The position numbers were made by a program, and so were the translations under genes. This document shows, piece after piece, positions 16,567-62,462 of a stretch of DNA of 64,000 nucleotides (its first letter is position 1; each line of letters begins with the position of its first letter). This DNA comes from Psammoneis japonica (lineage: Eukaryota). The stretch spans positions 414,979-478,978 of the forward strand of contig QPGO01000008.1 in assembly GCA_008632985.1 (NCBI GenBank), given 5' to 3'. The notes beneath the pieces were generated by a model that ran no database searches, was not told where the DNA came from, and saw only the letters and a program-made list of their open reading frames with translations.

Positions 16567-18850
16567 AGGAACATGTTGAGACCGCAAACGAAAACGACAA
16601 CCTAAGAACACCGCGAGAGAACCTGCATTTTACCTTTTTCAGCATGGCAGAACTGCACGTTTGAAAGACAGATGTGAATAACAAGTAGTAGAAATTACAC
16701 AGTCCTCAATGATCAGCCTGTGACAGCGTGTCGAGAGAGGGCGGATCACAGACCCTGCTAGAACTGAGAGACCTGACTTTGTGGTCTAAGCCAAAAATGA
16801 TGGGGGATGTAAGAGAAGAGGCGAGAGTGGTTGTTCCTTGCAGTGCCCCACAAGCACCGTGCAATGCTGACAGAGTGCCAGCCCACACCCCCAGCACATG
16901 CCAAACTGGGTGAGATGTGGAAGGGCTGACCCTTCCTTGGCATCATGCAACAATGGCACCAGTTCAAAATGGAGCCAAACTGTTCTTTTGTTCTTCAGGA
17001 GAGGCATGTGCAGTGTGCAATGCATCCCATGGTCAATCGTCTCCCTTTCAGTTTATGTTGTTCTTTCCTGTTGCCATTGTGGCAAACATTGTCATTGACT
17101 GAGCTCCCCATTGTGTTTTTGCTTTGGTTGTGATGAGGGCATGAGTGGCCCACCTCTGGATGAGATTTCTCTCAGCAACTGGACAGGCACAGATTCCACC
17201 CAACCTCGCACATTTGTTGTGCAACAGCATGCCCAACAAAAGGCAAAGCCACCTCACCCAAATCTTTGGCAACTGCCATGGAAAACTTTGCTTTGTCTGT
17301 GAATCCCTTTGCTGCCGTGCACTCACGTGTGCGCAGCAGGTTGTCCTGTGGGTTCTTGCACACCACGTGGTCCATCCCACAATGCTGATGAGCCCCAGTG
17401 ATTTGCGATGCTGTTGTGAGTGCCACAAGCACAAAATGGCACCAGCACTTTGCAAGTCTTCTCAATGATGCATCAAGGTTGTTTGAAACAAGATTGTTGG
17501 TGCAGGCATGAACTCCATTGGCAGAGCTGTCACAGCTGTGGTGAATGACGGCACAGATCAGCAAGAAGATCTCCTCTTCCAAAACCTTCTGACTCTTTGG
17601 CGCCACAAGTGCTCATCAGAGAAACAGGCCCATGAATGTCTCAGTCAACTGATGTGAGAGTTCCTGAACTCTGTTTGCTTTGGTCACTTAGATGTTGTGC
17701 ACACACTGCCTGCACAATGTGGTTGTCTCACTCGCCACTTCCATGATGATTTTTCAACTGTGCTTTGGAGTCAGATGTGCAGAGTGTGGCCCAAGTTGGC
17801 CATTTCAGATGACCTGCTTTGCTGTGCTGTGAGAAGCCCAATCCCTTGTCACTTTTGCTGTGGAGCTTGATTGTCAGACGCCCTCTGTCAACACAGTCCT
17901 TTCTCAACAAAGTCAAAATGCTGTCAACAGCTTAGACAACAAAACAACTTTTTGTTGGCTTGTTGATGTTTTGCTGCTTTCAGTGGCAGGTTCAGCCAAA
18001 TGCACTGATGTGCCAAAATCAATGCTGGGTGTTGCAGCACACTGTGTGCACAACAGCTGGTGTTGTTCCCAAGCTCTTTGTGCTGCTGTTTGCTGGCTGG
18101 TGCGTTGATGGCGCAATGCCATCATGCTGTTCCTAGAGTTGTGCCTGGTTTGGGCCACTTTGGACTTGGAATCTTTTCTTTTTTCTTTGCTTGTTGTTGT
18201 CTGAAGAGTTTTCTGTCCCAGCGCTGCACTGCTTTGTCTTTCCCCCCACTGCCATTGCTTGAGACAGCACTGTCATGGCTTGCTTTTTTCTTGATGCCCT
18301 TGGCATTCTTGACAGTGTGCTCTTCTTTTCTTTGCCCATCTTGGACCTTCTCTTGAGCTCTTTCTTCTTGTCAAGCACAGCATCTTTTGTGGGCTCCCTG
18401 TCTGTTGCTGTGACCTCTTGGCAGAGCAGGCTGAGCCTCTTGGCTTTTCCTTCTGGGGCACTTTCTCCTTTCCACCCCAACCTCCATCATCTCTCCCTTG
18501 ACTCTTTCTGCCACCATGAGAAGACCTTTGTTGAACAGAGCTGCAGTGTCAGCAACAGCTCACCCCAGCATCTCAGATGACAATTGTTGGCTGCTTGCCG
18601 CTCATTGCACACTCTTTGCTGTGGTGATTTGTGTGGCACTGTTTCTTTTTGCACCTGCAGCAGCCTTTGACACACTTTTTCACTCCAATCTCCCTCCATT
18701 TCCTGATGCCCATTCTTGCATGCTGAGCTTGCTGCCAGCTGCAAGCTTTTGCATCACTGTGTGGCACCTTCTTGCTGCACACAACAAGCTGGACTTCTCA
18801 GCAAAAAGTCTTGACTTTGGGGGCAGCTCTTTGCAAGCCAGCACATTGTT

Positions 18851-18881
<31 letters not shown>

Positions 18882-21800
18882 TGATGGGTTGGTGCTCCAT
18901 TTTTCTTCCATTTGCTTTTCAGCACAGCTGGCACACTTGGCTGGTCAGAACACCATGGAGTTGGTGGACATGGCCCTCTTTTTGGCATCATTGGCACGTG
19001 TTGTTTTCTGTCTGACAGACATCTGAGATGGGGAGTGCACTCCCTTGTGTTGGACAGACTGGCATGGACAGCATGGAGAGATCCAATGATCTCTCCTTTG
19101 CTCACTTTCTTTCTCATCCAGGGCATGATTGTCATCTGTCCCAGATGTCTGTCAGATTGTCCCTCATGCCGGCAGTCCACAACTGTCAAAATGGCACGGC
19201 ATGGTTTGCAAGAGAATTTGCTCACTGTGTGCACTGGCCTTGGGTGTTGGAGCATGCTCATCTTCCATCTCATGCCCACCTTGCTTGTGCCCACCCTCAC
19301 ACCTCACACCTGCGGCGCCACTTTTTTGCAGTGCTGCTGCCACAATCACAAAAAAACTGACAAGCAAGCAACAAAATTTGGTGAGTGCAAGTGCACAGCC
19401 ACTGTGAGCTTGCCTTTCCTTGCACGTTTTCCCAGATGACAATTGGCTCAAGACTCAACCCTGCAATGACGCCAAATGAAAGTGTCATGGTTTTCCCTTG
19501 TGCAAATGTTCAGCTGCTCTCCGAACACCTGCAACCCTCTTCTCACCCACAAAAGGCTTTGGTTGATGCAATGAAGCGCCAGCGCAAATTCCCTTGCCAC
19601 AGCATTTTCCTGCCTTGGCTGTTTCTGCTCTTCATGGTGTCACAGCCAATGACCAAAAAATGTGAGGCAAATCTGCCACACAAAGCTGCAAGTTTCTGCA
19701 GCAACAACTGCACAATTGAGTGGTCAGCATGCTGCCTGCCCATGTTGTGGAGACACAGCTTCCAGCAGATCACACATGGCCCACTTCAACAAATGACCTC
19801 AGCTGCAAAATGTTCTCTCTCTCTCTCTTTCCATTTCCCATGACACTCACAACAAAGCTCGCATGTCAGATGGGGTTGAGCAAGCAAGAAGTTCAGAGCC
19901 AATTGCAAGTTGAGGCACAGCCAGACCTGCTCTCCACCTGGTTTTCTTGCACATGCAACCACTGACAAACTCAAAGCATTTCTGCCTCTGCCACACCTGA
20001 GGAGTCCAGTGAAACAGCGCCAGCACCACTCTCTGCTCAATTCTTGTGTGCACAGCTCACCAGCCAACAACTCAAAGCATTCCCATCTGTGGCGTGCCTG
20101 AGTCCAACAAAGAGCGTGTCCTGGGATCTGTTTGTCTGTTGCGCAACACAGAGAAATCAAGTTGAGAAGCACAAGAAGAAAGGAGAGCTGGGAGAACAAA
20201 CATGAGTTGCACCAAAACCACCCTTGGCATTCCACGTTAAACTCACTTGCCTGTGCAGCCCACCAAAAAACAACTCAAAGCATTCTTGCATTTGCCAGGC
20301 CCAAATCCTGCAAGGATGAGGTGAGTCCAGGCATCTGTTGAGATCTTTGATGCTGAAAAAAATCCAAATGGCAAGAGATTGCAGAAAGAAGCATTGTGAG
20401 TGCTGCTCATTGCATTGTTTGCAAGACAGAGGTGTGCTCTTAACCAGAGCTCATTTTGCAACAAAAAAATGGTGCAACCACACTTTCACATTGTCGGGTG
20501 AGCAGCAAGAGCTTCTGGGGTCATTCTCCAGCCCAGCGCAAACCTTGCGCTCATGCCACACCAAGTTTCCAGCTGCAAAAGAAGAGAAGCACGCAATTTT
20601 GCTGACATCAGAAAACAAAGCATTGCACTCCACTCACATGGTCAGCAGCAGATGTCTTGACAATTGCTTTTCATCTGTTGGCTGGTTGTTGATTTTGTTG
20701 GTTGACTGGGGGGTGTGGCAGCAAGAGGAAAATGCTTGGCAGGGCGACAATGGGAGGACCCCATGATGGCTTGCTGATTCTGTTAGATGGAAGTTGCCAA
20801 CCACCGCATGCAGAAAAATGTGCATCATCATGGCACAGCGCACGCTCTCATTGTGAGATGGTGTGCAGAGCTTTGGCACACAAGCAGCAAGAACACCAAA
20901 AAATGAGCAGCACCAGGTGGTGCAAAAAGCTTCAAGAAAAATGAGCAGGGGTTGCAAGAGAGCAAAGTGTGGCAACAAGGAGGCAGCAGCCACGAGTGAA
21001 AAAAATGGGTGTCAGCACACAGGAGGGAAAAGGGTTTGAACATCACTGAGCAGGGGTGTGAACAAATGTTGTCCACAGCCATGCAAGAAAGTGGGCAAAA
21101 AGTGTGCGCTGTTTGCAAGGCAACATCAGCTGGGGCTGATTGTCCAAAATGATGGGGGGTGCAAATGTTGTCTCACAGCACAGTTGGAAGCTGAGCAGGA
21201 GTGCTTCCACAATGACGCCAATCAACACAACTTTGTTTTTCAAAAGTTTCAGAACAAAGGCAGCACAGTTGCTTTGACAAAAATTCAAAAACAAACCTGA
21301 GCATTGTGAGGTTGCAAGCAGTGGCACACCTGGTGTTCGTGTCCAACCTGCAGTGCATTGTTGCTGCTGGGTCATGCGGAAGGCTTCCAGCACACAGCAG
21401 CTGTGTGGCGGAACATGGCAACACATGCCATGTCTGCACTTGCTGATGCCAGAAATTTGGTGCTGCTGCAAGTGGCTGTTGTTGTCATTTTTTGTGTTTG
21501 GCTGGTTGTCTCTTTCCCTGTTTTGCCGCTGTCTTGTCAGCCTCAATCCAGGTGTGCAGCCCAACTTGGTGATCATGCATTGCAGCATTGCCTGCACCTG
21601 TGTTCTGAGCTGGTGTTTTGTGTCCAGCAGATGTGGTGCTTGAGGTTCTTGCCCCTGCCATCAAAGTTGCAGCTTGTGCAACAATCTTTCTTCTTGTGAA
21701 TGTCGTGCTGCCTCCCTTGGCAAGTGTCTCCAATGCACCCATTGGACCAACCAGTCTCTGACCCTCTGCATGTTGGATTTGTTGCCATGCTGTGTCCCTC

Positions 21801-22743
21801 CTGCAGACAATGTTGGATGTCAGGTTGAGAGGTGCACTTCAAAATCTTTTGGCTCTGACCTCAGAGAGCCAAGGAAATCCCAGAAAAATGGCTGTCATCA
21901 GGGGAAAGTTGTTTGAGCAATCCTCTGGTGGTGGCTGTGTGCAGCCCAGCACACAGAGGTGCGTTGGCCTGCTGCCCACATCATTTGCTGTCATTGCTGC
22001 TCCTGCTGCTGTTGCTGCTGTTTTGTTGTTCTGCCTGCCATGATTTGGTGGTGGGAAATGGCAAGCATTGACTCATTTTGCACAGTGGCTGCTGTGCTTC
22101 CTGGAGTGTGTTTTGCAGCATTGTCACATGTTGGTGGTTCAGCAATTTGGTGGTTGGCTGGTGACAACTGTCTCCAGTGCATGTGGTGCACAGAGATGGA
22201 AGGAAGGGCAGCTGCTCAAACTGCTGAGCATGGGTCAGGGGTGAGCTTGACAAGAACCTGATCACAGATCCAGTCATGAGGAGAGGTTTGGAGCTCCTGT
22301 CCATTGTGCTGTTGAGCTCCCACAGCATCCCATGACAAAGCATGCCACTCACACTGCATCACACTGTGAAGCTGCAGTGGTGCCATGGGGTGCAAGAGAA
22401 CCAGGTGCTGTGATTGTGACAACTGTTGCTTTGTTGCAAATGCCAAAAAGCAAATGACAAGAAGAGATGAGAGCATTGAAGAACCAAGCACAACAGCCAG
22501 CCAGCCCCCTCCATGCAAAGTGCACTCCATGTGGACATGACCACCAAGGCATGAGAGTGGGTGAGGCAGAAGCACCTGCGGCTTCTGTTTTGGGCACTGG
22601 TTGACTTCAAAGCCAGGACTCAACTGCCTCTTGCGCACCCACTTTGTCAGTGATGACATGAGGCCAAGACCCAGTTCAGCAAAGTGCTCAACAACTGTCA
22701 AAGTGTCACTTGAAAAGCAACAATGAGGAAACAATGAACAAGA

Positions 22744-25700
22744 GTGCCACACACAGAAATCTTGTGCAAGCTGCTGGGAGTGCTTGACAAGCAAGCCAGA
22801 TTTGAGGTCAGTTGCGAGGAGGTGCAAAAGGAGGCATTGCTTGTGTGCTCATGTTGGCTCAAAGGGAAGCCCATGTCTGAGGGACAAAGCTTTTTTCAGA
22901 TGTCAAAGAGCATGGTGCAGCAGTTGAGACTCTGGATGATTGTGTGGCTGTGGCCAAGGAGAAAATGGCTGTTGAGGATGAGCGAGCCAGAGAAATTGGC
23001 GATGCAATGGTCTGGACATGATGTCAAAAATCTTGCACTCTGTGACACCAAAGGGTCAGAAAAAGAATGTTCTGCTGACAAGCTGACTTTTTTGTGCCTT
23101 TGTGTGGACAAGATTAAGAACTCTGACACTGATCTGACATTTTGCAGTTTTGAAAAACAGCTCTGTTGGCTGAGCAAGCTGGCGCATGGAGGGTGCCACC
23201 CCGTGCACACTCGCAAGTCCTCAAACTCATTGTGCAGCACTTTTGCTTTGTGCACCCAGCAGCAAACAGCATGGTGATTCAGCAGCTGCTTCTTCAGTTG
23301 CTTTGGGCTGCAGCAAAAAGAGCTCAGTTGCATCCATGGGCCAAACCAGCAGTTGGAACGGAAGAAAAAAAGCGGACATGAAAAGCTCCTGGGGTCTGAG
23401 ACAAGAGCAGGGTTGCCAGAGGAGTTGTTGGCTGTCAAAGATGCAAATGATGAAAAAAAATGGCAGCAGTGTCATCAAGCTGGCCATGCAAGGAATCAAA
23501 GATGTCCTTTTCAACCAAGGTGGCACACACAATGCACAGTGGGGGCACTTGGCATTTTCTGAGGACGGCCTGCTGCTCAACAGTCAAATGAGGCCAGCAG
23601 CTGCTCAGCAATGGGTGGCAACACTTCCATGCACTGGGCAGAGAGACAAAGAAGAGTCTTCATGATTTCTTCAAAATGCCCAGCAAACAAGGCACCCAGT
23701 CCACTGAGGATTAGAGTGCAGTGTGGGTGCAGCCATGGCTGGTGGATCTGACATCACAGAAAAGTGCCTTGGAAGAGGGAGCCATGCAGCAAGCACTTTG
23801 AACCAAATGAGATGTGCACCATTGCTCACAGCACACATCCACAACATCTGAAAGAGTTCAAAAGACAAAAGAAAGAAACAGAAGGTGTGAGCCAGCTGTG
23901 GTGCACGGTGCAAGGGCTCAACAAAAGAGGCCATCTCATCTGCAGAGAGACTCACCATCACCTTGCAGAAAATCTCAGACTTTTTGCATTCTGACAAGGT
24001 TTTGCACCAAGAGAAAACACAAACAAATGCAAGCACTTTGTGCCTGCAGGAGTTGCACACATGAAGGGCAACAGGAGATGTGTGACCTCCACAAGGCATG
24101 ACACTTGCCACAGTGTCTGTGATGAAGAAATGTTTGGTTTGTGGAGCTGACTCTGAAAAGCCAAACAAGCCACATTCAATGCAGGAGGAGGTTCTCCAAG
24201 AGTGCACAAAGTTGCCAAGGAGACAAGACAGCATCAAGGGCAGCTTGAAGCTTCTCAACAAATGTGCGCATGCCCATCATGGCGATTGCAGCAAGTGGGC
24301 ACACAGGCCCATTTTTGTTCTTGCCAAAATGTCCGCCACTTGCCAAGTTGCTGCAATTGTGCAACAAAGCCAGAAGAGAGTGGCCTCAACAAGCCATTGA
24401 AAAAACACATGAGACAGAAGACTTTTTGGGGGGTGGGTGGCTGCAAATGCAACATCAGTGCCAGACTTCTCCTGCTGTCATCACTTTGATCAGCATGGAA
24501 AGTTTTCCACCTCCAAACTTGTGTGGCTGTCTGGAGAAGCTTTTGTGCAAGTGGGGGACAATGCCAGAATTGCCGCTGCCCAACATTGACAAGAGCAGGA
24601 GAGCTGAGAGTGCAAGAAAGATGAGAGTGGCACCTCAGCCCATGAATGAGACAGGGAAGGGAATGGGTCATTTGCTGTTCAAGACAAAAATGAGCCCTTC
24701 TACTTCCAGGAGGCTTGTTGCAGGGACAGTTGCACACACTGTTTGTTCCTGAGGGCAAGTGCAGAGAACCCAACAAGTGAAGCAAAAAGAGACCGCAAAG
24801 GGAAGAGTGTGTGTGCAAATGGGACAAAAAGTTTGCTGATTGCCTGCTGCATGTTGCCTGAAATGGACCCAGTGACTGGCAAAAGAAGGGGCCACAAAAT
24901 GTGTGCTTGTTCTCTCTGACAAAATGATGGACCACAACTTTGTTCACAAAAAATGTGCCAAGGTGGCCCACCCTTCAAGCAAAGATGGGTGCAAGCAACT
25001 GAGTCTGATGGCACCACCTGTGGTGACAATGGAGTTGCAGCCCAGGAAGAGTTTCTCACTTGGTTGTGAGGATGTGAAAGAGTTCATGTCTTGCCTCCTG
25101 AAGGATGCATTTGAGGAGCACACAGCACACAACACACTGTGCTGGAAAGCAAGGCATGATTGGGGCTCAAAGTTGAACAAGATCTGGCGCTCCGTTTGCT
25201 TTGTTGAGTGCAAAAGCATGACAAAAGAAATGCTTGCACCCAGAGGCTCACAATTGCAGCATCACTCACTTGGCCCACAGAGTGCTTCTTTCTTGAAATG
25301 GCCAAAGCAACCCCTGACGTGCATGTGCAAAGAATGTCACATTTTTTGAACACAGCAAAGAATCTGGAAGCACAGCTTGCAATCACACAATGATGGCTGG
25401 TGCTGTCTCTGCCCCAAAGATGGGGAAAGTGAGCAACAGCCATGGGGCAGAGGCATTCCTCAATGAAAAGCAACTGCCTGGAGGAGTCAAAAGTGACTCT
25501 CCAATCATTTTTTGCTGGAGAGGGGCCCGGGTTGGCAAATTGGAGCAAGTCCACCAGAGCCGCTGTTTCCAACAATGTGTGAGTCACATTTGTGTCGTCA
25601 ATGGGGTGGCGCTGCAAAGGACAGCATCAAGGAATGAAAGCTTTTTTTAGCTGGCAAATGCTCCAAACAAAGAACGTGTGGAAGCCAAAGACATGCTCAG

Positions 25701-27430
25701 CCTGGTCCATCATGGCCACATGGACAGCTGATGGTTTGGCACGTGGCCAGAATTTCAGCACGCACACATGTGTCAGAGGTTGACAACTGAGGACCTGGAG
25801 CTCAAGCCATGATCAAACACTTGGCAGCCAAGTGCCTCTCCCAAAGGCCAAAAGAAAGACTGGGCATTCTGAAAAAGTCCAACAACCAGAGGACAGATGA
25901 TGAGAGCTCTTCAATGTGAGACATTTGCAGCTGACATGTGTGCTCATCTGTGCTGCCCTCCTCTTGACCCATTTGACCACCAAGTTGTCAACACAGAGAA
26001 AGGCTGCAAAGCACCTGGCTTGGACTGCTGTTTTCATGTGTCCTTGGCAAAAGAGTCATGCCCTGCTTGATCAAATTTGATGTGACAAAGGGGCATCTCT
26101 GCACATGTGCACCTTGCCTCTCAAAAGTCAGCGCAAAAAGAATTGTGGCTGACACCATGCTTCACAGGAAGCTTCTGGAAAACCTGTCTGGGCTGAGCCA
26201 GCCAAGCCATCCAGTGTGTCAGAAAATTGAGGTGAGCACACCTTGGAAGAGCCACGCAGAGAAATCCAAACAAGAGGAGGTGCTGCAATTGTGAGAATCC
26301 ACCCAACAACAGAGAAAACCATGCACCCCAACAGCAGTCATTTTGTGACATGTGACATGATGGTTGCTTGAAAAGCCTTGGAAGTTGATGGCATGTGGAG
26401 TGCATGGGGCCAATTGATTTGATGCTGGGTGGTTTGCAGCCCATGTTTGATGGCTTCAATGTGAAGAAACAAAAAGGAATGAAGGCCAATGGTGCATTGC
26501 TGGCACAGAGCAAATGCTGCAGTGCAGCGGTGCTTTTGTTTGCAGAACAAACCAAACAAGGTTTGATCTTGTGTGCAGCAAAGCCAAAATGATGTGCAAG
26601 CTCACGGAAGTGCAAGCAACAAAAAGCAGCAATGCAGTCAGCTTGAATTGCACACTCTTGCAGAGGGAAATCAAGTGGGAAAATTTTGAGCAAAAAAGTG
26701 ACCATGAGAAAACAGTCATTTCAAAAGGGGCGACACTGTGCTGAGTGTCTTGTGTGAGCATGATCTTCATTCAGTCATTGAGAAACATTTTAAATGTGGA
26801 ATGTTGTTGACCACATTGGCGACCACAAGAAAAGAGCCATTTCAAAATGGGGGGTTTCAATGTTCCAAGTGCCTGAGGTGAGCCCAAGATCCAAGCTTTG
26901 GCTGAAGTTGCCAGGACATCCAAGATCTCAATTTGCCAAAATCAGGTGATTTTGCCACACCTGACCAGCCAACTGCCCAATGCATGTGATGGTCATTGCA
27001 CCAAGCAGGTGCAATTGAGGGCTGCCTTCATTTTCTGTGTGTCACAGTGTTCTTGTTTTCATTGTGCAATGACATCCTGCATCAGACCTCAGTGCCAAAA
27101 ACAAGCAAAGCTGCTGTGTGCAAAGAGATTGAAGAATTGCTGTTGGCAGTTTGGGTGGTTGACAAGTGTGGTTGTTCACACATGCCAAACAACAAAGTTG
27201 GCAAACACACATTTTTTGCTGCCACACTTGTGTTCTCTTCATGCAAGCAAATGGACACAGAGGTTGTTTTCCTCAGGCAACTGCAGCAGGGCTGCATGGG
27301 CACTGGTGTGCCATGATGGTGATCTCCTCTTGGCAGAGGAGATGCACAAAGTGCCAGATGAGGGAAAATCCTGCAAAAGACTGCCCCAGCCCCAGCTGCA
27401 AAGGTGAGCAGCTGAGATGCTCTGCCATGT
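22744..27430 (+). mobile_element. decayed LINE-like non-LTR retrotransposon: APE-like? - RT - RNase H-like? - C5 DNA methyltransferase-like
   Basis: collinear RT motif remnants across frameshifts: GDCSKWAHRPI (~24281), QKTF.GVGGC..NI (~24415), VWL..EK/AF..V (~24521), GLLQG...TLF (~24712), FAD (~24832), HKKC (~24945); weaker LALCDTK/GD (APE) and SDS...ADGLARG (RNase H). Confidence 0.6.
26172..27010 (+). pseudogene. degenerate DNMT3-like cytosine-5 methyltransferase domain inside the LINE-like element
   Basis: ordered remnants LLENLSGL (motif I?), NH.P...FCDM*, GPIDLMLGG..PC (motif IV), N...QKG, FAE (VI), NA...QR...WENF (VIII), AECL, LTTLATT, LW/AEVAR (IX), QL.NA..VI (X), with DNMT3-like spacing. 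Confidence 0.55.
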
Positions 27431-29831
27431 GATCTGAGAATTCACAGTTGTTCCAGCTGACCAAGAACTCTCATGTTGCGCAGCGCATTTTGATGCTCAC
27501 AATCTCCAAGCATGCAGGTGCCAGTGCTTGCAAAAACAAAATGTCTCCACTAAATGCTGCTTCCCTTCAATGTGAGCAAGCACACTGCTCCACCCATGCA
27601 CAGTTGGAGCTGTCATAAAATTTGGTGCTGAGGTCTTGGTGTGCTGCGTGCTTGCCCCTCCATGGCTCGGCTGTGGGGATGACTTGTTTTTTCTTCAAAT
27701 GGTCTGAGATGTTGCCTGACTCTTGTTTTGTGTTTGCAAATCTCTTCCCCTTTTGATTTGTGCTGTGCTGTTGTCAAGCACTTTGGCAGCAACAGCACAC
27801 AGGCTGCTGCGTGATCTCTCACACCTGTTTGCATCACCACATGGTTGCTGTTGTGGTGTCTGGTGACATTCTTTGTCATTTTGGCATTGTGCATGTTTTG
27901 CTCTTTGTTCTTTCTTTTCTCTTTCATTGTTGCAGTGTTGGTCATTTTCTGCTTCTTGCATGCTTTGACTGTTCTTCAGTTGGCAGCATGTGTGGTGCGG
28001 AGTGTCACATCTCTGAGCATGCAAACTCTGGGGGGCTTGAGCAAGACATGTGCATCTTTGTTGCATGTGGGCTGCTTTGCTTGGTCAAATGTTGTGAACA
28101 AGCAGAGCATCTCTCTTTGGAGCTGGAGTCATTTCCAAGCTCAGCAGTGCAAAGCTCTTGTCATGCTGCAGGTTTGCTGCTTGGTTTGCTTGCTCTTTCA
28201 TTTTTCAGCAAAGTTGCAGCCACTGCTGCCATTGCTTTTTGTGGGTCATTGTTGTCACTGTCTCAAAAGAAGCTCTCTCTCTCTCTCTCTCTCTCTCTTT
28301 TCTCCACACAGCAGCAAGTCATTTTTTTGTTGTGTTGCTGTTGTTGCTGCAAGAGGGGGGGAGTGCAGGCTGTCATTGTCAAAGCTTGCTGAGGAGGCTG
28401 CAAAACATGGTGAGAACAATTTGCTTGGCTGAGCGATGCTGTTGTCACACGCTGGCATGTCTTTGCAGAGCTGGTTTGTTTCTCTTTTTTCCATGTGCCA
28501 GGTGGGCTCTCTTTTTCCATCTTTTGTCATTGGGGCCTGCTGAGAAGAATGCAGAAATTTCTGCGGCCCTTGTTGTTGTTCTTTGTCCTTTCTCCTCTCT
28601 AAACCAGACTTTGGCTTTGAGGCAACAGCAGAACAAAGGGGCAAAAGCAACATGATTGGATTTTTTAGGATTTTCCACTGCACAAGAAAAGCACAGTGTG
28701 CTGCATGCCTCATTGCCAAGAGGTGGTGACGTGAATGTGGCGTGTGTTGTTGTGACGTTTGTGCCATGTCAGCAGTGTGCCCCAGAGTCTTTTGTCCTTG
28801 CAGACACTCAGTTTGTCAAGTTTGTGAATTCACTCAGTCATGTGAAAGAAGTCCCCACGAGCAACCTTTGTTTGACAGCAAAAGGTCATGCCAACACAAG
28901 GCTCTGTTTTTTGCCCCGTCGTTTGATGCACTCCATTGTTGAGCAATTGAGAGGAGTTCATCCGGGGGAATTTCTTCACACACATTCATGTTCACAACAG
29001 CACAGTCAACTGATGTGTCAAGCACCAACTGCAAAGTCATCCTCTGGCTTCATCTAAAAAGTGCCGTTGTCATCATTCCTGTCGAGCGACAATTTGCCAT
29101 GCAAACCGCAGTCAGCTGCGTGTCCTGCATCGTCGGCCCAATGTTGCACTGCTGTGCTCAATGACTTTTGTGCACACCCTGAGAGCTGCTTCACACCCAG
29201 ACTGCAAGCATTAAGTCAAACCACACATTTTGCTCCTGCTGTCAACGGATGTGCCAAGAGCAAGAGGTGTGAGGACAATCTGCACTGCCTGACTCGTTCG
29301 ATTGTTCAAAGCTCCCAATCTGGATCTCATCCATCCACGCGCGCAAGATGCGTCATGGCTTCAACTCGGAAGGGTGAAGTTCCGCTTCATTCAAAAGCAG
29401 TTCGCGTTCTGGCAGTGAAATGTACCCTACGAGTCTTAAGAATCACATACATAGCCTCTAAATAAAACTCCGGGAATGGCATGAGAAGAAGTGTGACTCG
29501 TATGCAAAAGTAACTCGATACACGCAGTCGTCATTAAAAATCTGGCGAGCTTCACTTATGATGATGACGTGTCTTCATCTGTCGATGAGCCATTCGTGTC
29601 ATCATTACTTATGGGACAGCGGTTTGCAAGATCGGCTTCTCGTCGTTTTCTGACGACTGCGGCGGCATGTTGACAAGCGATCTTCTTCGTTTTTTCACTT
29701 GGCACATCCCGCCCATCATCTCGCTACTTCGTTTTGCAATCCCATCAAAGCTGTTGATTGCATCACGTGACAACAGTGTCACAGTCACGCAACACAGCTC
29801 TCACACTGAGTACTGATTCAACAACAGCATC

Positions 29832-39449: not shown

Positions 39450-40249
39450 GGTGTCGAGTATCTTCCTTGTGAACAGCAAATGAGATGCACAACGATTGCA
39501 GCGATTGACTTGTTGTGATGCGAGTGCGTCCACTGACGACACCGCGTTGCACGTCAGCGAACGTCTTGGCGGCAAGTTTTGGAGCATCATTATCGCGCGC
39601 GAACAATCGACCGTACCGGTACGAGGACAGACAACCGTGAGACAAGAAGAACAATGGAGTGCAAAATGCTTTGGCAGGCGAGTACAATCAGCTGCACGAA
39701 AACATTCGGAGCGCTCCGCTGTGCTCTCTGCATGAGAGAAAGGAAAGAAACAATTCGTGCAATCGATCAATGTGCAGTGAACAGTGAAACCTCTCCAGTG
39801 ATCAACACTGACAAGAACAAAAATTCTTTGGTGCCTGCAGGCACAAAACCAAGTTTCACAGGTTCCCAAAAAGAGATGTCTCCACATGAACACACTTGAG
39901 CTGATGAGGGTGGACAGCATGCCTCCTGAAAGAAGTTGCAGTGGTGGCATCACACACATGCATGGAATCACCCCACCTTCAGGTGACCCAAATGAGCGCA
40001 TCTGTGTGCACGTGCCAAGAGCCACTGTCAGCGGTCAGCGCATGACTTCAGATTCAGCAAGCTGGCTGTTTGGTTCTTGCTGACAACTGGGTCTCACTTC
40101 TGTTTGGTCTCTGTGATGTTTGTGCTGTGTCATGTGTGTGTCTTGCTCCATCTGTCCACATCAGGTCCGTTCTTTTAAACTTCAAATTTCAAACAGAGTG
40201 TGCCAACCTGAGGCAACAGACAAGATGTTTGGCATGGGATGATGTGAGG

Positions 40250-41974
40250 TGACGTCAGTCAACGAACCCCCCATTGAACCAACCAACCTTGATGGAGGAC
40301 CCAAAAAAGGTTCACCACAGTGGCTTGAAGCTGTCTCTGCAGAAGCCTCACATGAAGAAACAAAAAGTGGAGAGTTGAAATCTTGCCCTGCTTGCCAAGA
40401 AAGAGAAACAGCCAAAGAAACAGAGCAAGAAGGAGACATGCTGCAATTGCATGTTCATGTCCACCTGCCAAACTTGTGCTTGCTCAGCATGTTGCAAACA
40501 TGGTCAACCATGCAACTCTTGCACTTGCTTTGCCAAATGCAAAAACAAAGCTGGGCTCCCTGTTGCATCTTCAGCAACAGGAGCTCATGTGTGAGAGGCC
40601 ATGGAAACTTCCAACCTCTGCCCAGAAACTGGTCCACTTCAGCCAAAAATTTGTCAACTCATCTCTGACACCCCTGGTGATGCCGGCAAAAGAGAAAAAA
40701 ATGGCCAGCCCCAAAGCTGACAAGGAGAGCACCACACCCAGCAGTGATCAAGATGCAGATGCTGACGAGGGCAGAACTGGTGAGGTCAACACTGTCTCAA
40801 GGGAAAGAACATGCAATCTCAACAATGTCGCTCATCTGAATGGTGGAACATTTTGTGACCAAGCTCAGCAAGAGCATTGGCACCTGCTGGCATGCTGCCC
40901 AACACACAATGGTGTGATGCCCCAAACACCTCCACAGGGAAACAGTTCATTGCAATGTCAGCAAAGTTGCTTCACATGGTCATGACGTGCAGAAATGGAG
41001 CTCAGACAGGTCTGTGGTGTTTCAGATTGTCACTCTGCAGCAGGATTGCAGCACCAAAGGAGCAAAGGATGTTAGAGCCATGTTTGCCAGGTGCAAGAAC
41101 AAACACAAAATGCTGGTCAAATCCACCGAGAGTGGCTGCTTGCAAGCAACCTCAAGTCCACTCAGAAGGACAAAATGCCCAAGCAGCATGCCAAGACATT
41201 CAATGGAATGGTGCCATGAGGAAACCCAAGAGGTGCAGTCAGGTGCATTGCTGAATGGGAAAAAGGTGGAAGGCTGTCACACTGGATGATGTCAATGAGA
41301 AGAAAAAGGGCACACTTCTGGAGGTCTCACAAGCAAAACATCCAGAGTCTTTTTGTTGAAGAAGCCCAATTTCCCAAATGTGGCACCTGAGCTCCAAGAT
41401 GTTGCCATCACTGGCAGTGTTGTCAGTGCTGCAGTGCAGACATTGTTGGGGAGCATGTGGCAGGACTTGACAGATCTGATGCCAGCACAGCATCACAATG
41501 GCTTCTCCATTGTCACATGGCAAAGCCAGCAGATTACTTTGAGAAGCATTGTGGTGTGCATGTTCAGAAGCTGGACAGCAAATGAATGAGTTGCCCCCTT
41601 GGGTGGCCTGCCAGGCTCTCATGATGAAAAGACTCATTGTGCAAAACAAAAATCTGGGCATCCATCTGGTCGGTGGGTGTGGAGGAGGCTTGGCAATGAG
41701 CCACAGCCAAAGCCGTTCTCCCAGTTTCTGCAGCTGAAGCCAAAAAAGGTTTGTGGTTTGTGTCACAGACCAAGCACGGGCCAGATTGGAAGCAGGCAAT
41801 GAAGGTGGCATTCACACTGTGAACCTGGGAACAACACAAATTTGAGGATGACTGTGGAGGGCTCTTTTCAGTCAGCAGTGCCTCCAACAGCTTCAACAAC
41901 AAGAACAAGATGCCAGCACTCCTGTTCACAGTCAGGCACAAATGACCTTCTGGCACTCAGTTTGCCTTTAACTG
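40250..41974 (+). mobile_element. 5' part of decayed CRE-like (RLE-type) non-LTR retrotransposon RT ORF
   Basis: LLEVSQAKHPE, NELPPWVACQALM.KRLIV.NKNLGIHLVG, LEAGNEGGIH, NSFN...LFTVRHK*PSGTQFAFNC match the family pattern PPWAAYRALM..RLIALDK.PGIRPVG / EAG.EG.IH / NAFN...VRH.WPSGARFAFNCY. Confidence 0.8.
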
Positions 41975-44900
41975 CATCTGGAAAATGTCGTTGCTCTTGT
42001 TCAGAGCTCACATTCTCTTGTTCAAAATCCTGTGCTCTTGTCAAGTCCTTGACAATCATCAATGAAGGGAACTCAACAATTGTTTCAACCTTCCAAGTGG
42101 GGTTTAACAGTCAACACAAATCAGTCTCATCATGCACACATTCTTGGCAATTTTTCATGTCTGCTTGTTTTGACATTGTTTTTGATTCTGTCCATGCTCA
42201 AAGTGACCTTGTAAGTGGGAAATGGCAGTCATCAATGAAGCTTGTCACTTGCATTTGTTTCTGTCTTAACAACCATGTGTTGGCAACAACTTTCTGACAT
42301 TGTTCATTTCTGACAACAATGGTGTTCAATTGTCTTGTCAACCTGATTGTGCGTTGGCTGTGTGCTGCTTGTCATCTGATTTGCAAATGTTCTGTTTTGT
42401 CATTTCTGTGATGGATGCTAAAAAATGCTCCCCCTTTGTCCTGCCCTTGTTTTTCTCCTGCACTGCACCAGTTCCTGTCATCTTTTGCAGTCCCCACATG
42501 ATGGGTGTCCTGTTTTGGTCCTTGTGTCCTCCCTTGTGGCCACTCTTGCTCTCTCCATGACTCCACTCTTGCTCTCTCCATGATCGTCTGCACCAGGTGA
42601 CAATGCCATCCCACGATGATCTGTCTTGCATTCCTTCTGTTTGGCAGGCACCAAAGTGTTGTCTGTAACAAGAGAAAACTTTGTGCAAATGATCAGGTTT
42701 GTGCATGTCTTGTGTCTCTCATGATCTCATCTCATGCACTGCTGCTGCTGTTGCTCACCTTTGTGCCCTCCCCACTGCCTGTCTCCCATTTTAGCTCAGG
42801 TCGCATGTTCAGATGTCTGTGTGCAAAGATTTGTGCAAGTGTCAGTCGTTTGCATTGTTTGTCCGATCTCCATGCACCCACCACTTGTTTCCTCTTTCTC
42901 ACCTTATGTCCCATGTTTTGCTCCATCCCATCCACAACACTGTTGCCTGTCTCCACTGCTCTCATTGTTGGACATTGGATGAAACTTGAGTTTGCATTTT
43001 TGTGTCTTGCGAGGCGGCAACAATTCATGTTTTTGGCAAAAAGACAAGCCTGTCTGTCAGTTGATTCCCATTGGCATCTCTTTTTCAGCAACAACTTTGT
43101 TTTAGAAATCAATGTCAACATTGTGTTGTGAAGGTTTGAATGATTTGAAACAACTTCAATGAACCATCCAGCCATCAATGTCATGCACGCATTCAACAAG
43201 TTTAATTTTGTCACATTGGTGTGTTCTTGTTGAGATTGAGGTGCACATTCTTCCTGGCTCTGGGACTTCAGTCAACACGTTTTTGCCATTTGGTGTGTTC
43301 GTTGACCATGCTGCCAAGAAAAAAGAAGAAGCAGATCCCACAAGGTGCTGGCCACAACAACGCCAGTCATGCCAGTGCCGCCTGTTTCCATGGTGGCTGG
43401 AGGTGGTGCTCATGGTGCTCAAGCACAAAGTTGAGGTCCACCCAGGCAGCCCAGGCAAGGCTCCAGGACAAGCCCTTGGCAAATCCAATGCCTTTGACAA
43501 TGCACCTGACAAATGTTCCCCTGCAGCTCAACAAGAAGATCTTGACTTTCTCAAGGAGTGTGATGGAGTCCCTTCCTGCAAGCTGCAAGACTCCCTTGCT
43601 CTTTGGAGCCTCTGAGCACCATGCCACCCACAGCATCAGCCCAAAAGAAATGTCTGGTGATGAACGCAGAATGTGGCTGTTGTTTTGCTGGTGCAGACAT
43701 GTGGCCTTTGCAAAAACCAAAACAAAAAAGATGTGCAAGCAGCTGCAGCAAAAACACAAAGTCAGTGGTGCAAAAATTGCCACACTGCCAACAAGATGAC
43801 AGCCTCCCTCCAGAAAGCTCAGAAACACACCCTTCATGCCAGCCAAATGATGACTTTGGAGACCAACCTTGTGAAGAAAGTGGGCAACTTGAAGGTGGGT
43901 TGTGCTCTTCTGTTCTCTCTTGGTTTTCCATCCAGACAAGAGATGCAGGGAACACCATGAGTTTCCACTCAGTGATTCCCTGCCCTGGTTGTTGTTGGCT
44001 CCCCTGGGGCACAATGGAGGCACCCAAGGCCATCCAAAGACAACTGGCGCTGACTGGGCCAAAGAAAGCCAATCACATCAGAAAAAAAGGGGCTGCATTG
44101 GTCCAAGACAAGGCTTTTCCTTCCCAGCCATTGTTGTTCTTGCCTCCTCAAGGACCCAATGGAGCCTCTTGTGCCCATCTCAAGACAAACGGGGGCTTGC
44201 ATTGTCACACAGATGGCTCCTTTGTCTTTCTTGCAAATTGATTCTTGGCTGGACCAAACCCAGTCATGTCAGAGAGACAAGGTGCTGCATTCACACAAGA
44301 CAAGGCCTTTGCTTCCCAGCCATTGTTGTTGTTGTGTCCTGCCTCTGGGATCCAATGGAGTCACCAAAAGCTGTCCCGAGATGACTGAGCACTTGCACTG
44401 TTGCACAGATGGTTTTCTTGTCTCTGCGGGTGGGGTGGCCATGCCAAACCCAATCATGTCAGAGAGACAGGGTGCTGTGTGGACACAAGACAGGGCCTTT
44501 GCTTCCCAACCATCATTGCCATTGCATTTTCTGGGATCCAATGGATTCATCCAAGGCCATCCCAAGCCAAGACAATGGAGCACTTAAGCTGTTGCACAGA
44601 TGTTTCCCTCCTTGTCTCTGCAGGTTGGCTGGCTGGGCCAGCAAAAGCCAGTCATGTCAGAAAGACAAGAAGATGCTGCATTGACACAAGACAAGGCCTT
44701 TGCTCCCCAACTGTGGTTGTTGGCATGTTCCTGGCAACCCACTGGAGTCCTCCAATGCCATCCCAAGACAACTGCACACCTCCTTTGCCACACCTGTGGG
44801 TCTGATGCTTTCACACCTCCTTGTGCAGCTGGGCATCCTCTTGTTTGTGGAGGAATCACACAAGGGGCTGCTGCTTCCCAAGACAAGGCTTGCAGCATGG

Positions 44901-47900: not shown

Positions 47901-47907
47901 GCAGACG
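41975..47907. mobile_element. ~5.9 kb nested insertion with short degenerate terminal inverted repeats, class unresolved
   Basis: interrupts RT at FNC|CK-HW; left end catctggaaaatgt vs reverse complement of right end cgtctgcaacatgt (11/14); TG on both flanks. Confidence 0.5.
43950..44800. repeat. degenerate tandem repeat, unit ~190-200 bp, at least 4 copies
   Basis: caagacaRggcYtttScttcccaRc recurs at ~44104, 44296, 44486, 44686. Confidence 0.8.
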
Positions 47908-49250
47908 TGCTGCAAGCGCACTGGAGCACCTTGATTGTCTGTGGGAACCTTGGGCTGTTCATCCTCCTTCTCAGCAAGGAAGGCTTCTCAAGCAGAGTGA
48001 TCTGCTGGGTGTGGCAGTGTGCGGGCAAGGCCTTCTGCTCCCACCAAACTGTGAGATGACCAAGCATTTTCCAGATGCACTTGCTCCTTCTTGGCGTGCC
48101 AATGTCTCTGCTGCAGCAGGTGAATTTCACATTTTGCAAAACTTCTTCCTGGCCCAATTCTGTGAGCCAAAAGACCTGAGCCCAGCTGCTGTCCCACCAA
48201 CAACTCCAAGAACATTCCAGCGGTCCCAGAGTGCAGTGTGCTGGAGAATGCCAAGAAAGGCTTTCTTGGAGAACTTGACTGGCAGCCAGCCACTGCCCAG
48301 GAAGTTTCAAAGGAGAGCACAAATCCTTTCATGAGTGGGCAGCAAAGAAGACTGAAAAGTGGGCCTCAGTCTCATCCAGCAGGAACTCACCAAGACATCT
48401 GCTCATGGCCCACAGACAGCCTGTGCCAGTCTGCAGAAGTCTTTGCAGCATGAGGATGTCCAACACACACAGCAAAGGACTGCGGTGACTGTTTTGCCAA
48501 TGTGGAAAATGGGATTAAGTGTCAATTCCTGCCAACACTTTTGGGAGAAACCCTGGTGGATGATGACCTGAGACTGGCCCTTGCCACCCCACCAATCAAA
48601 TTTGAAGGACTGTCTGTCCAATGTCTCCAGCTGAGTGTTTGCAAAGCAGAGCTTTGAAGCAAGCACTCTCACATGTTTGCACATGATTTGCTCACTTCAT
48701 GACCACTCACAATTCACCACAGCTGTCCACAAGGACATGATGCATGAGGTGAGGACAGCAGCAGCTGAAAGGAGCCAAAAAGCATGAGGACGCACTCAAA
48801 TCTGTCCTCTGCACTCTGCCTGAAGTTGACGCTTGCGCAGCACCAAAACTGGTGCTTGGTCTGGAGATGGTGATCATGGAGATCTTTTAGCCAAAGACTT
48901 GTGGGAATGGAGCACAGACACAATCATGGATGTTGGAGCAGCTGATGCTGATGTGCCATCCCATGTGTCCAAGACAGCCAAACAAGTCCTGCTGGATCAT
49001 GAAAAGGAGAAGAAGCACAAGTGTCTCAAGCCATGCCTGCTTGAGCAACACCATCATTTTTTGCCTGTTGTGGTTTCATACGATGGTCTGATTGGCAAGG
49101 AGGCTCAAGCCATCCTGCATCAGACAGCCAGAAAGATTTCGAACAAGTGGCAGAAGCCCTGTTCTGAAGTGTGTGGCTTTGTCAATTCAAGATGATTCAG
49201 CATTGCAATGGAAATTCGCGCGCGAAACTCAGTGCCGTGGTCGCACATGT
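47908..49250 (+). mobile_element. 3' part of the same CRE-like element (RT core, CCHC region, restriction-like endonuclease)
   Basis: HWSTLIVCG..LLSKEG, QSDLLGVAVCG (QGDPLG..YG), WRANVSAAAG (WYADDSAAAG), GDLLAKDLW...IMDV...HEKEKKHKCL..C....HFLPVVVSYDGLIGKEA...KWQKPCSEVCG. Confidence 0.85.

Positions 49251-62421: not shown

Positions 62422-62462
<41 letters not shown>

Follow-up and report, generated by a model that had tools for sequence, protein, structure and literature searches.

Depletion of TpA alongside CpG in four blocks of old inserted DNA in the diatom Psammoneis japonica

Described hypermutation systems and the composition of the blocks

To our knowledge, all of the transposon-directed hypermutation described to date proceeds as C>T, namely RIP, TpCpG hypermutation, APOBEC editing and CpG decay. 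RIP of ascomycetes (e.g. Neurospora) leaves saturating transitions on both strands, confined to inserted or repeated DNA within fairly sharp limits, and the element is dead. It converts C to T mostly at CpA, creates TpA and lowers G+C, acts premeiotically and only on duplications that exceed a minimum length, and needs a homologue of the RID-type methyltransferase; RIP is indicated by a TpA/ApT index of ~0.89 or more and a (CpA+TpG)/(ApC+GpT) index of ~1.03 or less. Methyl-CpG decay, known from vertebrates and plants, changes CG to TG/CA and brings the CG o/e of silenced repeats to 0.1-0.2, and it cannot remove TA. As for changes of A, the Pol eta phase of somatic hypermutation, which follows the processing of U:G or T:G mismatches, converts WA to WG; ADAR prefers a 5' U, and TadA/ADAT, like the adenine base editors developed from it, prefers a 5' U/T, with a 3' C in the natural UACG loop. 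ADARs are, as far as we know, found in animals only. We are aware of no natural TadA/ADAT-family enzyme that deaminates adenine in chromosomal DNA, nor of any other natural DNA adenine deaminase; base editing needed one evolved in the laboratory. A RIP-like hypermutation of C>T at TpCpG in transposon-like repeats of Pucciniomycotina was described by Horns et al. (2012, PMC3318451), in which A:T pairs are unmentioned and TpA occurs 0 times. Heritable APOBEC editing of LTR elements has also been published (PMC4866542).

The window analyzed here is a stretch of 64,000 nucleotides, in which four TA/CG-poor islands were found. Blocks 1 (16760..29420, 12.7 kb) and 2 (39780..49250, 9.5 kb) are delimited by composition and edges, the former being made up of segments that differ in the sign of their purine skew and containing no ORF of a known family. 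Block 3 (59200..60250, ~1 kb) is intergenic, between the Clp1 and Brix genes, and block 4 (61950..64000) reaches past the window end and contains a retroelement relic. The composition changes sharply, over no more than 200 bp, at each edge: ~16.76-16.81 and 29.42 kb for block 1, 39.78 and 49.25 kb for block 2, 59.2 and 60.25 kb for block 3, and 61.95 kb for block 4, which runs to the window end. The intergenic DNA adjoining the blocks has normal TA.

When the four blocks were pooled (24,954 bp), 59 TA were observed against 1090 expected from the density in the flanks, and 218 CG against 1351. The overall o/e is 0.04 for TA and 0.15 for CG, so the depletion of TA is the stronger one. Per 1-kb bin, TA o/e was 0.00-0.10 in the blocks and 0.47-0.96 in the flanks, CG o/e 0.06-0.24 and 0.74-1.55, and TG and CA o/e 1.5-2.3 and ~0.9-1.6, respectively; G+C was equal in both (~0.46-0.52). 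These counts across the window confirm the contrast between TA-poor blocks and normal flanks that had been drawn in the preliminary description, and the details given there hold as well: 20786-23114 is free of TA (the nearest ones are at 20784 and 23115), and 21001-21600 contains 0 TA and 6 CG (at 21107, 21216, 21338, 21377, 21409 and 21527).

TG/CA rose twofold in the blocks (o/e 1.82), and pyrimidine-purine steps amounted to 0.2385 per bp in the blocks and 0.2411 in the flanks. Since the total of these steps is conserved, the change in the blocks consists of transitions only. Converting TA and CG of the flank DNA to TG/CA in silico reproduced the 4-mer spectrum of the blocks with r=0.95, against r=0.68 for unconverted flank DNA. 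AA/TT was not depleted (o/e 1.23 in the blocks vs 1.11 in the flanks), AT was mildly reduced and GC mildly raised across the blocks. The TG:CA counts of blocks 1-4 (1506:1399, 1056:1082, 116:106 and 234:203) indicate that the loss of TA is strand-symmetric. Altogether, two context-specific transition processes have operated near saturation in the blocks, CG>TG/CA and a separate TA>TG/CA, with TG/CA as the sink; both affected the strands about equally and stopped within 200 bp at the block edges, leaving the adjoining genes and intergenic DNA untouched.

The blocks resemble the products of ascomycete RIP in their saturating transitions on both strands, their restriction to inserted DNA, their fairly sharp limits and the death of the element. 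The sign is opposite, however: TpA is erased rather than created, CpA/TpG are the products, and G+C is unchanged. The indices fall on the wrong side of both RIP thresholds, with a TpA/ApT of 0.046 (0.70 in the flanks) and a (CpA+TpG)/(ApC+GpT) of 2.05 (1.19 in the flanks). With the TpCpG hypermutation of Pucciniomycotina, the blocks share a 5' T preference, TCG being their most depleted CG trinucleotide, but all CG contexts are depleted in the blocks and not strictly TCG. Methyl-CpG decay agrees with the CG side of the pattern (CG o/e, the rise of CA/TG and the changes of Arg codons described below).

Codon changes in the retroelement relic of block 4

The blocks had been regarded as mobile DNA in the preliminary description. 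This stands for block 4, by virtue of its reverse transcriptase (RT)-like relic, and for the MITE in block 1 (see below), and mobile DNA was demonstrated only for these two; a Pfam search of all four blocks (~25 kb) in six frames detected 0 transposon domains (block 1, 0 families; block 2, 0 families at E<=1). All four blocks consist of inserted DNA that is old and dead, at least one of them being a retroelement.

The dead RT-like ORF (62498..63997, minus strand) covers positions 105-618 of the family HMM over three frames. Its best match in the family search had an E of 6e-57 at 40% identity, 2800 relatives were found at E<=1e-3, and the relic scored 248.5 bits against an HMM built here from 85 homologues. 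The motifs DKNLG, FGDT..Q..G.TMGTPP (FGDT..Q..G.AMGTPP in the family), FIDDVFGIW, FMDLTI, IPPHSAHPPGV and NLGNLL are recognizable, and polymerase motif C (Y/F-x-D-D) is kept as FIDDVFGIW vs YIDDVFGIW in the family. No Pfam family was matched by the relic or by the 8 homologues tested among the 150 listed (the RVT model was unmatched), and a PDB sequence search with an alignment profile yielded 0 matches. The family may be akin to Penelope-type elements. The main reading (-1, P0001) is interrupted between 61801 and 63999 by 25 in-frame stops, of which 22 are TGA.

Tyr codons were rewritten almost throughout the relic. At the 18 consensus-Tyr positions we found His 7 times, Cys 6 times, Val twice, and Tyr, Phe and Gln once each; His or Cys occupied 13/18 of these positions vs 28/411 of the others (Fisher p=5e-11), and the residue was kept at 1/18 Tyr positions vs 189/443 for other residues (p=0.001). 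At the 25 consensus-Arg positions, the relic has TGA at 4, Cys at 4, Arg at 3, His at 2 and Gln at 2, and Arg codons turned into TGA/TGY/CAY/CAA at 12/25. The 64 most conserved positions kept 44/57 of the residues other than Tyr and Arg, but 0/5 Tyr and 0/2 Arg; here Tyr became His or Cys at 5/5, whereas the other single A:T>G:C outcomes occurred at 0/41. Because conserved residues were retained at 44/57 and Tyr at 0/5, the rate at TA was far above the background and no slow drift. Tyr>His followed a purine in 5/6 cases and Tyr>Cys a pyrimidine in 5/7, an association that is not significant (p=0.10, n=13).

The preliminary description had named intact, active copies of the same families that are equally TA-free as a finding that would speak against it. 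All 79 intact relatives, which come from metagenome loci and not from the host species, have normal TA (median o/e 0.67, minimum 0.45), and a 500-bp stretch with one TA or fewer was found in none of them. The loss of TA in the blocks is mutational, through the A:T>G:C rewriting seen in the Tyr codons of the relic, and there is little doubt that TA>TG/CA changes did take place in the blocks. The relic being old and frameshifted, the process may have been chronic and long-term instead of a dedicated burst. A native composition, in which the elements themselves evolved the avoidance of TA and CG (e.g. to escape TA-targeting transposons, nucleases or methylation), would account for the composition itself and nothing further. 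A coding element needs Tyr codons, though, and the relic has His/Cys exactly at the family Tyr positions, is broken by TGA stops at family Arg positions and belongs with 79 intact relatives of normal TA; we give this explanation practically no credence.

The same codons bear on whether the changes preceded insertion, i.e., whether retroelement RNA or cDNA underwent hyper-editing of an ADAR-like (A>I) or APOBEC-like (C>U) type and was inserted afterwards. Such editing would end the pattern exactly at the element ends, and it is in line with the sharp edges, with block 4 being a retroelement, and with the edges of blocks 2 and 4, which fit transposon ORF ends or a 3' region. It predicts a single direction, however, whereas the relic is balanced between the strands (His:Cys = 7:6; Arg>TGA/Cys 8 vs Arg>His/Gln 4) and TG about equals CA in each block. 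Moreover, the in-block MITE, a DNA transposon by its inverted ends, was converted too. The footprints that APOBEC (G>A) and ADAR (A>G) leave in retroelements are alike in that enzymatic deamination became heritable in transposon copies, but they are single-stranded and pre-integration, while the blocks were hit on both strands and the MITE was affected by its location. Editing before integration is improbable as the origin of the pattern.

Repeats within the blocks and read support

MITE copies, and reads, were compared in X1, a DNA run that is possibly the assembly's own source and hence not an independent sample. The MITE-like element of block 1 (19011..19157, 147 bp; inverted self-match 19010-19157) has terminal inverted repeats CTGACAGACATCTG... 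and is high-copy, with an X1 depth of 5,000-27,000 vs ~65. The copy in block 1 contains 0 CG and 0 TA, while most copies of the family keep theirs. The majority of the family (over 50% of the depth) departs from the window copy at 6 positions, all of which lie in TG/CA dinucleotides of the window; the majority states of the family at such positions are CG (3 sites), TA (1 site) and mixed (one site). The single clear TA>CA site belongs to the 'resistant' context, YTAR (see below). As only the in-block copy lost CG/TA, the place or the element matters and not the copy number alone. The targeting of repeats, as claimed in the preliminary description, is shown in part and is doubtful as stated: the block copy of the MITE was converted, but most copies of this high-copy family were not. 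Block 1 is mostly single-copy in X1 at >=85% identity. As a side observation, a 147-bp high-copy MITE left unconverted in most of its copies offers a hint on the duplication rule of RIP.

Block 2 harbors a tandem repeat (44049..44815) with a unit of ~190-200 bp, which served as an internal clock of post-duplication conversion, and short direct repeats with many aligned CA-versus-TG sites were found in block 1 (19911..20391). The transition:transversion ratio of the intra-block repeats is 1.8-4.8, with 4-13 aligned CA-versus-TG sites per pair; the corresponding values of a duplicated gene in the flank are 1.1 and 2/57 sites. Conversion took place after the duplication of the intra-block repeats.

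Short-read-type contigs of X1 span 15001-31000 with an even k-mer depth of 60-70 inside and outside block 1, and differ from the window by 4 substitutions and one small insertion. The preliminary description had named raw reads with TA at these positions as a finding that would refute it; block 1 is reproduced at even depth, albeit in what are possibly the assembly's own data. This reproduction makes a one-off base-calling artefact unlikely. An artefact could also have arisen in heavily modified DNA, if modified bases or miscalls peculiar to one chemistry had entered the assembly during polishing, and both the possible identity of X1 with the assembly source and the three CG/CA/TG sites in block 1 at which X1 and the window differ are compatible with it. 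Nevertheless, a misread modified pair would yield strand-discordant calls and broken unitigs, whereas the X1 contigs cross block 1 without bubbles at the depth of the flanks, the choice of TG or CA is fixed at each site, and the codon changes of the relic are coherent and accompanied by frameshifts, like those of a real pseudogene. We hold an artefact to be very improbable.

Sequence context and the proposed mutator

Among the 59 remaining TA, 44 are in YTAR (21% in the flanks; p=1e-17) and 1 is in RTAY (29% in the flanks; p=1e-7). The residual densities relative to the flanks are 0.011 for ATA, 0.016 for GTA, 0.056 for CTA and 0.156 for TTA, values that come from a near-equilibrium composition in which survival and re-creation of TA are mixed. 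At least one remaining TA was newly made, in a relic codon CTA at a family Pro position. The residual CG density is lowest in TCG (0.09) and 0.26 in GCG (0.09-0.26 across NCG).

TA remains absent or nearly absent over the final 170-570 bp of blocks 1 and 2, where CG has recovered its normal frequency. The right tail of block 1 (28850..29420) has a normal CG density with 2 TA in 570 bp, and that of block 2 (49080..49250) has several CG, including cgcgcg, and 0 TA. The loss of TA is partly uncoupled from that of CG. Methyl-CpG decay as the whole explanation is ruled out by the 59 TA found against 1090 expected, the CG-retaining tails included.

The claim in the preliminary description of a second mutator, TA to TG/CA, on top of CG decay is supported by the Tyr codons of the relic, the intact relatives and the CA-versus-TG sites within blocks. 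On the CG side, 5-methylcytosine would be deaminated in methylated transposon DNA, preferentially at Y-C-G, TCG showing the strongest depletion. On the TA side, a distinct DNA-level mutator would change A to G at T-A-Y (R-T-A on the opposite strand), and its weaker action at other A-Y steps would produce the extra reduction of AT, the raised GC and the preference of the surviving CG for RCGY contexts. As the probable cause, we lean towards a mutator that is dedicated to TA, works separately from CpG decay and attacks transposons at the level of their DNA.

The main competitor is a passive by-product of heterochromatin, in which error-prone T:G repair (Pol eta patches, strand-blind glycosylase) or a nucleotide-pool bias acts over long periods in methylated, late-replicating, poorly repaired DNA and brings about A:T>G:C at TA. 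The age of the relic, which lies in three frames with 25 stops in the main one, the long-standing methylation implied by CG decay in the same tracts, and the mild general loss of AT with gain of GC are consistent with it. On the other hand, AA/TT is undepleted, contrary to the WA signature of Pol eta; TA is gone at the block tails where CG stays, and normal in the intergenic DNA adjoining the blocks; the most conserved relic positions retained other residues and no Tyr; and the in-block MITE copy lost all CG/TA, with 0/6 of the positions at which most of the family differs from it falling outside these dinucleotides. Pol eta, one of the candidates in the preliminary description, fits poorly: somatic hypermutation by Pol eta does yield A>G at TA, but WA includes AA, which is not depleted, and TA was also lost where CG is not decaying. 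A by-product of this kind appears rather unlikely.

As for the chemistry of a dedicated mutator, we prefer the enzymatic conversion of A to hypoxanthine, which would be read as G. The T-A-Y target suggested by the blocks resembles the context of TadA/ADAT in sequence terms, the enzyme being a candidate, and we tentatively raise adenine deamination by a TadA/ADAT-like enzyme of the CDA fold that would be targeted either to the chromatin of transposons or to the element itself. It is likewise conceivable that diatoms possess a RIP-like defence of opposite sign, in which an enzyme converts A (or the paired T) at TpA on both strands, limited to the element and independent of CpG methylation. If so, the defence would destroy Tyr codons and erase TAA/TAG, and would be the first natural DNA-editing defence of the A:T>G:C type, a natural counterpart of the engineered adenine base editors. 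A full-text literature search found no description of a TA-erasing mutation pattern in transposons, in agreement with the preliminary description, which knew of none in diatoms. Transposon-limited TpA erasure by A:T>G:C would constitute a new mutational signature and imply an unknown activity on A:T pairs of DNA.

TA-poor tracts evade homology- and Pfam-based repeat annotation (0 in 25 kb, six frames), and composition-based gene finding is distorted in them because TGA is the only stop left; a TA o/e below 0.1 is a simple marker by which heterochromatin and old insertions of transposons can be mapped genome-wide in diatoms. One lead is an ORF at 48830..49249 (plus strand), probably what is left of a second ORF of transposon type, which terminates a few bases from the right edge of block 2. 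It had no match in a word-based sequence search; its Atlas feature score was 0.97/0.96 to eukaryote clusters, and its motifs may resemble those of a transposon-type ORF.

Composition and limits of the four blocks

The window comprises compact-gene nuclear DNA of a eukaryote, in which Pfam recognized a mitochondrial carrier, a class I tRNA synthetase (W and Y), Clp1, Brix and TPR proteins. The Atlas cluster nearest to the synthetase is that of tryptophan--tRNA ligase and contains mostly Bacillariophyta, so a diatom origin is plausible. Two diverged copies of one coding segment (30180-30554 and 32107-32478) flank a gap of 199 N (31262-31460), and may stem from a gene having been duplicated locally or else from a scaffolding problem. 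A GT..AG junction between 15854 and 16002 in the run X2, labelled 'DNA?', resembles an intron of 147 bp in the gene on the left side of block 1, suggesting that X2 is RNA despite its label. Around block 1, X2 covers the flanking genes only.

The four blocks poor in TA and CG (approximately 16.76-29.42, 39.78-49.25, 59.2-60.25 and 61.95-64.0 kb for blocks 1 to 4) displayed observed/expected ratios (o/e) in 1-kb bins of 0.00-0.10 for TA, 0.06-0.24 for CG and 1.5-2.3 for TG and CA, while those of the flanks were 0.47-0.96 for TA and 0.74-1.55 for CG. G+C was equal in blocks and flanks. In the pooled blocks (24,954 bp), we observed 59 TA and 218 CG against 1090 and 1351, respectively, predicted from flank density. 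The counts in the preliminary description, namely no TA in 20786-23114 and no TA with six CG in 21001-21600, were exact. The sum of the four pyrimidine-purine steps per bp was unchanged (0.2385 in blocks versus 0.2411 in flanks), implying that purines and pyrimidines kept their class, and that TA and CG became TG or CA via transitions. The tetranucleotide spectrum of the blocks was matched with r=0.95 when every TA and CG in the flanks was changed in silico to TG or CA, compared with 0.68 for the unconverted flanks.

The edges of the blocks were sharp, being confined to 200 bp or less. CG was back at its normal density over the final 570 bp of block 1 and the final 170 bp of block 2, yet hardly any TA occurred there. 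Thus, the loss of TA does not simply follow CG decay. The edge of block 4 lies about 0.5 kb past the last aligned part of a retroelement relic (see below for the details), and the right edge of block 2 is a few bases from the C-terminus of an ORF at 48830-49249 (+). The limits of conversion thus look like those of inserted elements. A cgcgcg run is found near the edge in both of the CG-retaining tails (29330-29345 in block 1 and 49205-49215 in block 2), which may be fortuitous or point to a terminal motif common to both; at their right ends, blocks 1 and 2 bear no significant similarity to each other.

TGA is the only stop left in blocks 1-4, TAA and TAG having been erased, and hence all frames of both strands abound in spurious ORFs (150-250 aa) with a high content of Cys, His, Gln and Trp. 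Such ORFs are a trap for gene finders.

Codon changes in the block 4 relic

The relic in block 4 provided the decisive test of mutation against native composition. The period-3 power of the purine/pyrimidine sequence, a signal that survives transitions, led to 62.8-63.4 kb; of two simpler frame scores, neither was informative and one assigned the wrong strand to a known gene. The minus-strand reading with X at stops (P0001) was searched with HMMER against 1.84 billion representatives, and matched 2800 of them at E<=1e-3 and 706 at E<=1e-10 (best E=6e-57, 40% identity). An HMM of 85 homologues placed the relic at 62498-63997 (-) across three frames, the main one of which contains 25 stops (22 of them TGA). 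In the six-frame translated window, the family HMM detected no further relic outside 62.5-64.0 kb.

The family consists of ORFs of about 600-700 aa with the polymerase motifs DKNLGPA, FGDTxWxQxxGTAMGTPPAPPYA, YIDDVFGIW, FMDLTI, LYIPPHSAHPPGV and NLGNLLSYR, from which we regard it as putatively reverse transcriptase-like. No Pfam match was found in the 8 homologues scanned among the 150 listed, nor did a profile of the family alignment match any PDB sequence. The eight members looked up reside on contigs of about 2.5-4.5 kb and are annotated merely as 'hypothetical protein'. The family, which may resemble Penelope-type elements, looks like an unclassified group of retroelements common in aquatic metagenomes.

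We compared the residues of the relic with those of the family at an alignment posterior of at least 7. The 18 family-Tyr positions are occupied by His (7), Cys (6), Val (2), Tyr, Phe and Gln (1 each); His or Cys thus appeared at 13/18 Tyr positions versus 28/411 other positions (p=5e-11), and Tyr was retained at 1/18 versus 189/443 for other residues. The 25 family-Arg positions include TGA and Cys (4 each), Arg (3), and His and Gln (2 each). Of the 64 best-conserved positions, 57 are occupied in the family by residues other than Tyr and Arg, and the relic retains 44 of these (77%), while none of the five Tyr (3 Cys, 2 His) or two Arg (both TGA) survived, and no other single A:T>G:C outcome was seen (0/41). 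The preliminary description had let its proposal, a second mutator converting TA to TG or CA in silenced repeats on top of CpG decay, depend on the substitution spectrum, and changes of TAY to CAY or TGY in the relic were far above other A:T>G:C changes. A purely passive effect of heterochromatin is rather unlikely and would have to explain the loss of TA while 77% of the other highly conserved residues survive. One TA in the relic was newly made, in a CTA codon at a family Pro position.

It had also been considered that intact copies might be equally free of TA. Among 501 confirmed matches in metagenome contigs, we kept 79 loci encoding intact relatives, using search patterns that included Tyr and by which converted copies are unfindable. 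These relatives, which are not copies of this species, have normal TA (median o/e 0.67, minimum 0.45), and none of the 79 loci contains a 500-bp stretch with one TA or fewer. In four of them (L035, L037, L036 and L018), CG o/e over the whole locus was 0.23-0.55 with sense-strand TG far above CA (2.05 and 1.22 in L037). The CG loss in these loci is strand-asymmetric, in contrast to the symmetric pattern in the window.

Authenticity of the sequence and origin of blocks 1-3

X1 is the sole public DNA run found to contain this stretch (0.99 of sampled words), and is possibly the source of the assembly itself; no RNA run was listed as containing it. Its contigs span 15001-31000 at a k-mer depth of 60-70, even within and beyond block 1, and differ from the window there at four substituted bases and by a small insertion. 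Three of the substituted sites, all in block 1, are exchanges among CG, TG and CA, namely CG>TG at 18112, CA>CG at 20591 and CG>CA at 25194; no fixed difference was found in the 3.3 kb of flanks compared. So few differences do not suffice to indicate that the process is ongoing. Misread modified bases could mimic the pattern, but a misread base pair would yield strand-discordant calls and broken unitigs, neither of which was seen in the X1 contigs. Although X1 is not an independent sample, we consider such an artefact extremely improbable. At 29019-20, where the window reads CA, another contig of the same depth reads TG; this contig also omits 142 bp (regions 29019-29027 and 28842-28985), and is a paralogous copy in which that site was resolved in the opposite direction.

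Copies of the repeats within blocks (44.05-44.8 kb, 19.9-20.4 kb, and 45.5 versus 47.6 kb) diverge chiefly by transitions, with transition:transversion of 1.8-4.8 under transition-tolerant alignment scoring. Of the roughly 16-38 pyrimidine-purine sites aligned in each pair, 4-13 have CA facing TG. The corresponding values for a duplicated gene in the flanks are 1.1 and 2/57. The CA-versus-TG sites match what is predicted if ancestral CG or TA was resolved independently after duplication.

Block 1 harbors a MITE-like element of 147 bp with inverted ends (19011-19157), which is of high copy number as its depth in X1 is 5,000-27,000 versus about 65. At each of the six positions at which the window copy departs from over half of the family depth, it carries TG or CA; the family majority has CG at three sites and TA at one (19119-20, 71% T), and one site is mixed. 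Thus, most copies elsewhere have retained the CG and TA that are lost from the block-resident one, implying that the trigger is not copy number alone but place or membership in a larger element. An exact 33-mer of the MITE had no match in metagenome contigs.

Six-frame Pfam searches of blocks 1-4 with stops as X detected no transposon domain, yielding three chance-level matches (E 0.085-0.24), and Rfam had no match in the window. By self-blastn, both plain and purine/pyrimidine-recoded, the blocks were not alike and no LTR pair was found; only internal tandem or short repeats exceeded shuffle noise (83 bits). Tandem Repeats Finder reported five arrays, including that at 44.26-44.77 kb, the only one used in the analysis. 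Block 1 is mostly single-copy in X1 at an identity of at least 85%, with depth bumps marking multi-copy pieces at 26.75-27.28 and 28.35-28.88 kb. Judging from the MITE, the few multi-copy pieces and the analogy with block 4, blocks 1-3 may likewise be of transposon origin. The block 2 ORF at 48830-49249 (+) is probably the relic of a second transposon protein, with Atlas values of 0.96-0.97 to unnamed eukaryote clusters (sponges, basidiomycetes). It bears His or Cys at presumed Tyr positions and TGA at presumed Arg positions. Word-based protein searches at 'longer' and 'near' lengths and tblastn against the 79 loci found no match to it. The tblastx matches between block 1 (21.95-22.05 kb) and the loci were dismissed as (TGC)n low complexity.

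Strand, sequence context and possible mechanisms

TG and CA occurred at 1506:1399, 1056:1082, 116:106 and 234:203 in blocks 1 to 4, respectively. In the relic, His:Cys among the Tyr changes was 7:6, and Arg changed to TGA or Cys 8 times versus 4 times to His or Gln. This strand symmetry favours a process acting on duplex DNA, or else on both strands, over the editing of one-strand RNA or cDNA. Editing prior to integration conflicts with the symmetry and with the converted MITE, and we therefore give it little credence.

The TA remaining in the blocks are mostly in YTAR (44/59; TTAA 19, TTAG and CTAA 22, CTAG 3) versus 21% in the flanks, while RTAY accounts for 1/59 versus 29%. The residual densities per strand relative to the flanks are 0.011 for ATA, 0.016 for GTA, 0.056 for CTA and 0.156 for TTA, and the preferred event is thus R-T-A>R-C-A (T-A-Y>T-G-Y on the opposite strand). 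The relic agrees with this preference, with Tyr>His after a purine in 5/6 and Tyr>Cys after a pyrimidine in 5/7, albeit not significantly (p=0.10). The bias for CG was opposite to that for TA, with depletion strongest at TCG (0.09) and weakest at GCG (0.26), and RCGY constitutes 40% of the remaining CG in blocks versus 21% in flanks. AA/TT is not depleted (1.23 in blocks versus 1.11 in flanks); AT is lower in the blocks than in the flanks (0.77 versus 0.90), and GC is higher (1.30 versus 1.05).

We propose that two processes may have acted on transposon DNA, one being methyl-CpG deamination and the other a separate, DNA-level, TA-specific A:T>G:C mutator. From the dinucleotide shifts, the latter would be an A>G mutator that requires a 3' pyrimidine and strongly favours a 5' T. 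Acting less strongly at C-A-Y and A-Y, it would create RCGY and GC, and a C>T process favoured at Y-C-G and weaker at Y-C-A would create new YTAR, of which the CTA codon in the relic is a visible case. TadA-type adenosine deaminases have UACG as their natural site. Since the 5' T and 3' pyrimidine fit this site, adenine deamination is the chemistry we prefer, though tentatively. Alternatively, a TET/JBP-type enzyme might oxidise thymine to a derivative that pairs with G; this gains no support because base J in trypanosome telomeres sits in Y-T-A-R, the resistant context here. Pol eta-type error-prone repair is a poor fit, as AA is spared in the blocks.

The blocks are similar to RIP products in that saturating transitions are confined to inserted DNA, but the direction is opposite, and they fail both RIP indices (TpA/ApT 0.046; (CpA+TpG)/(ApC+GpT) 2.05). 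A full-text search of openly accessible papers found no description of TA/TpA erasure in repeats, and within that scope no counterpart was found for the TA half of the pattern. Of what was initially claimed, the conversion of TA to TG or CA restricted to dead inserted DNA stands, while the qualifier 'repeat-targeted' is doubtful and the enzymology is putative. The pattern would represent hypermutation limited to transposons, with a specificity that is new and opposite in direction. Its CG half is similar to ordinary CpG decay and, in the bias towards TCG, to the TpCpG hypermutation of Pucciniomycotina (PMC3318451).
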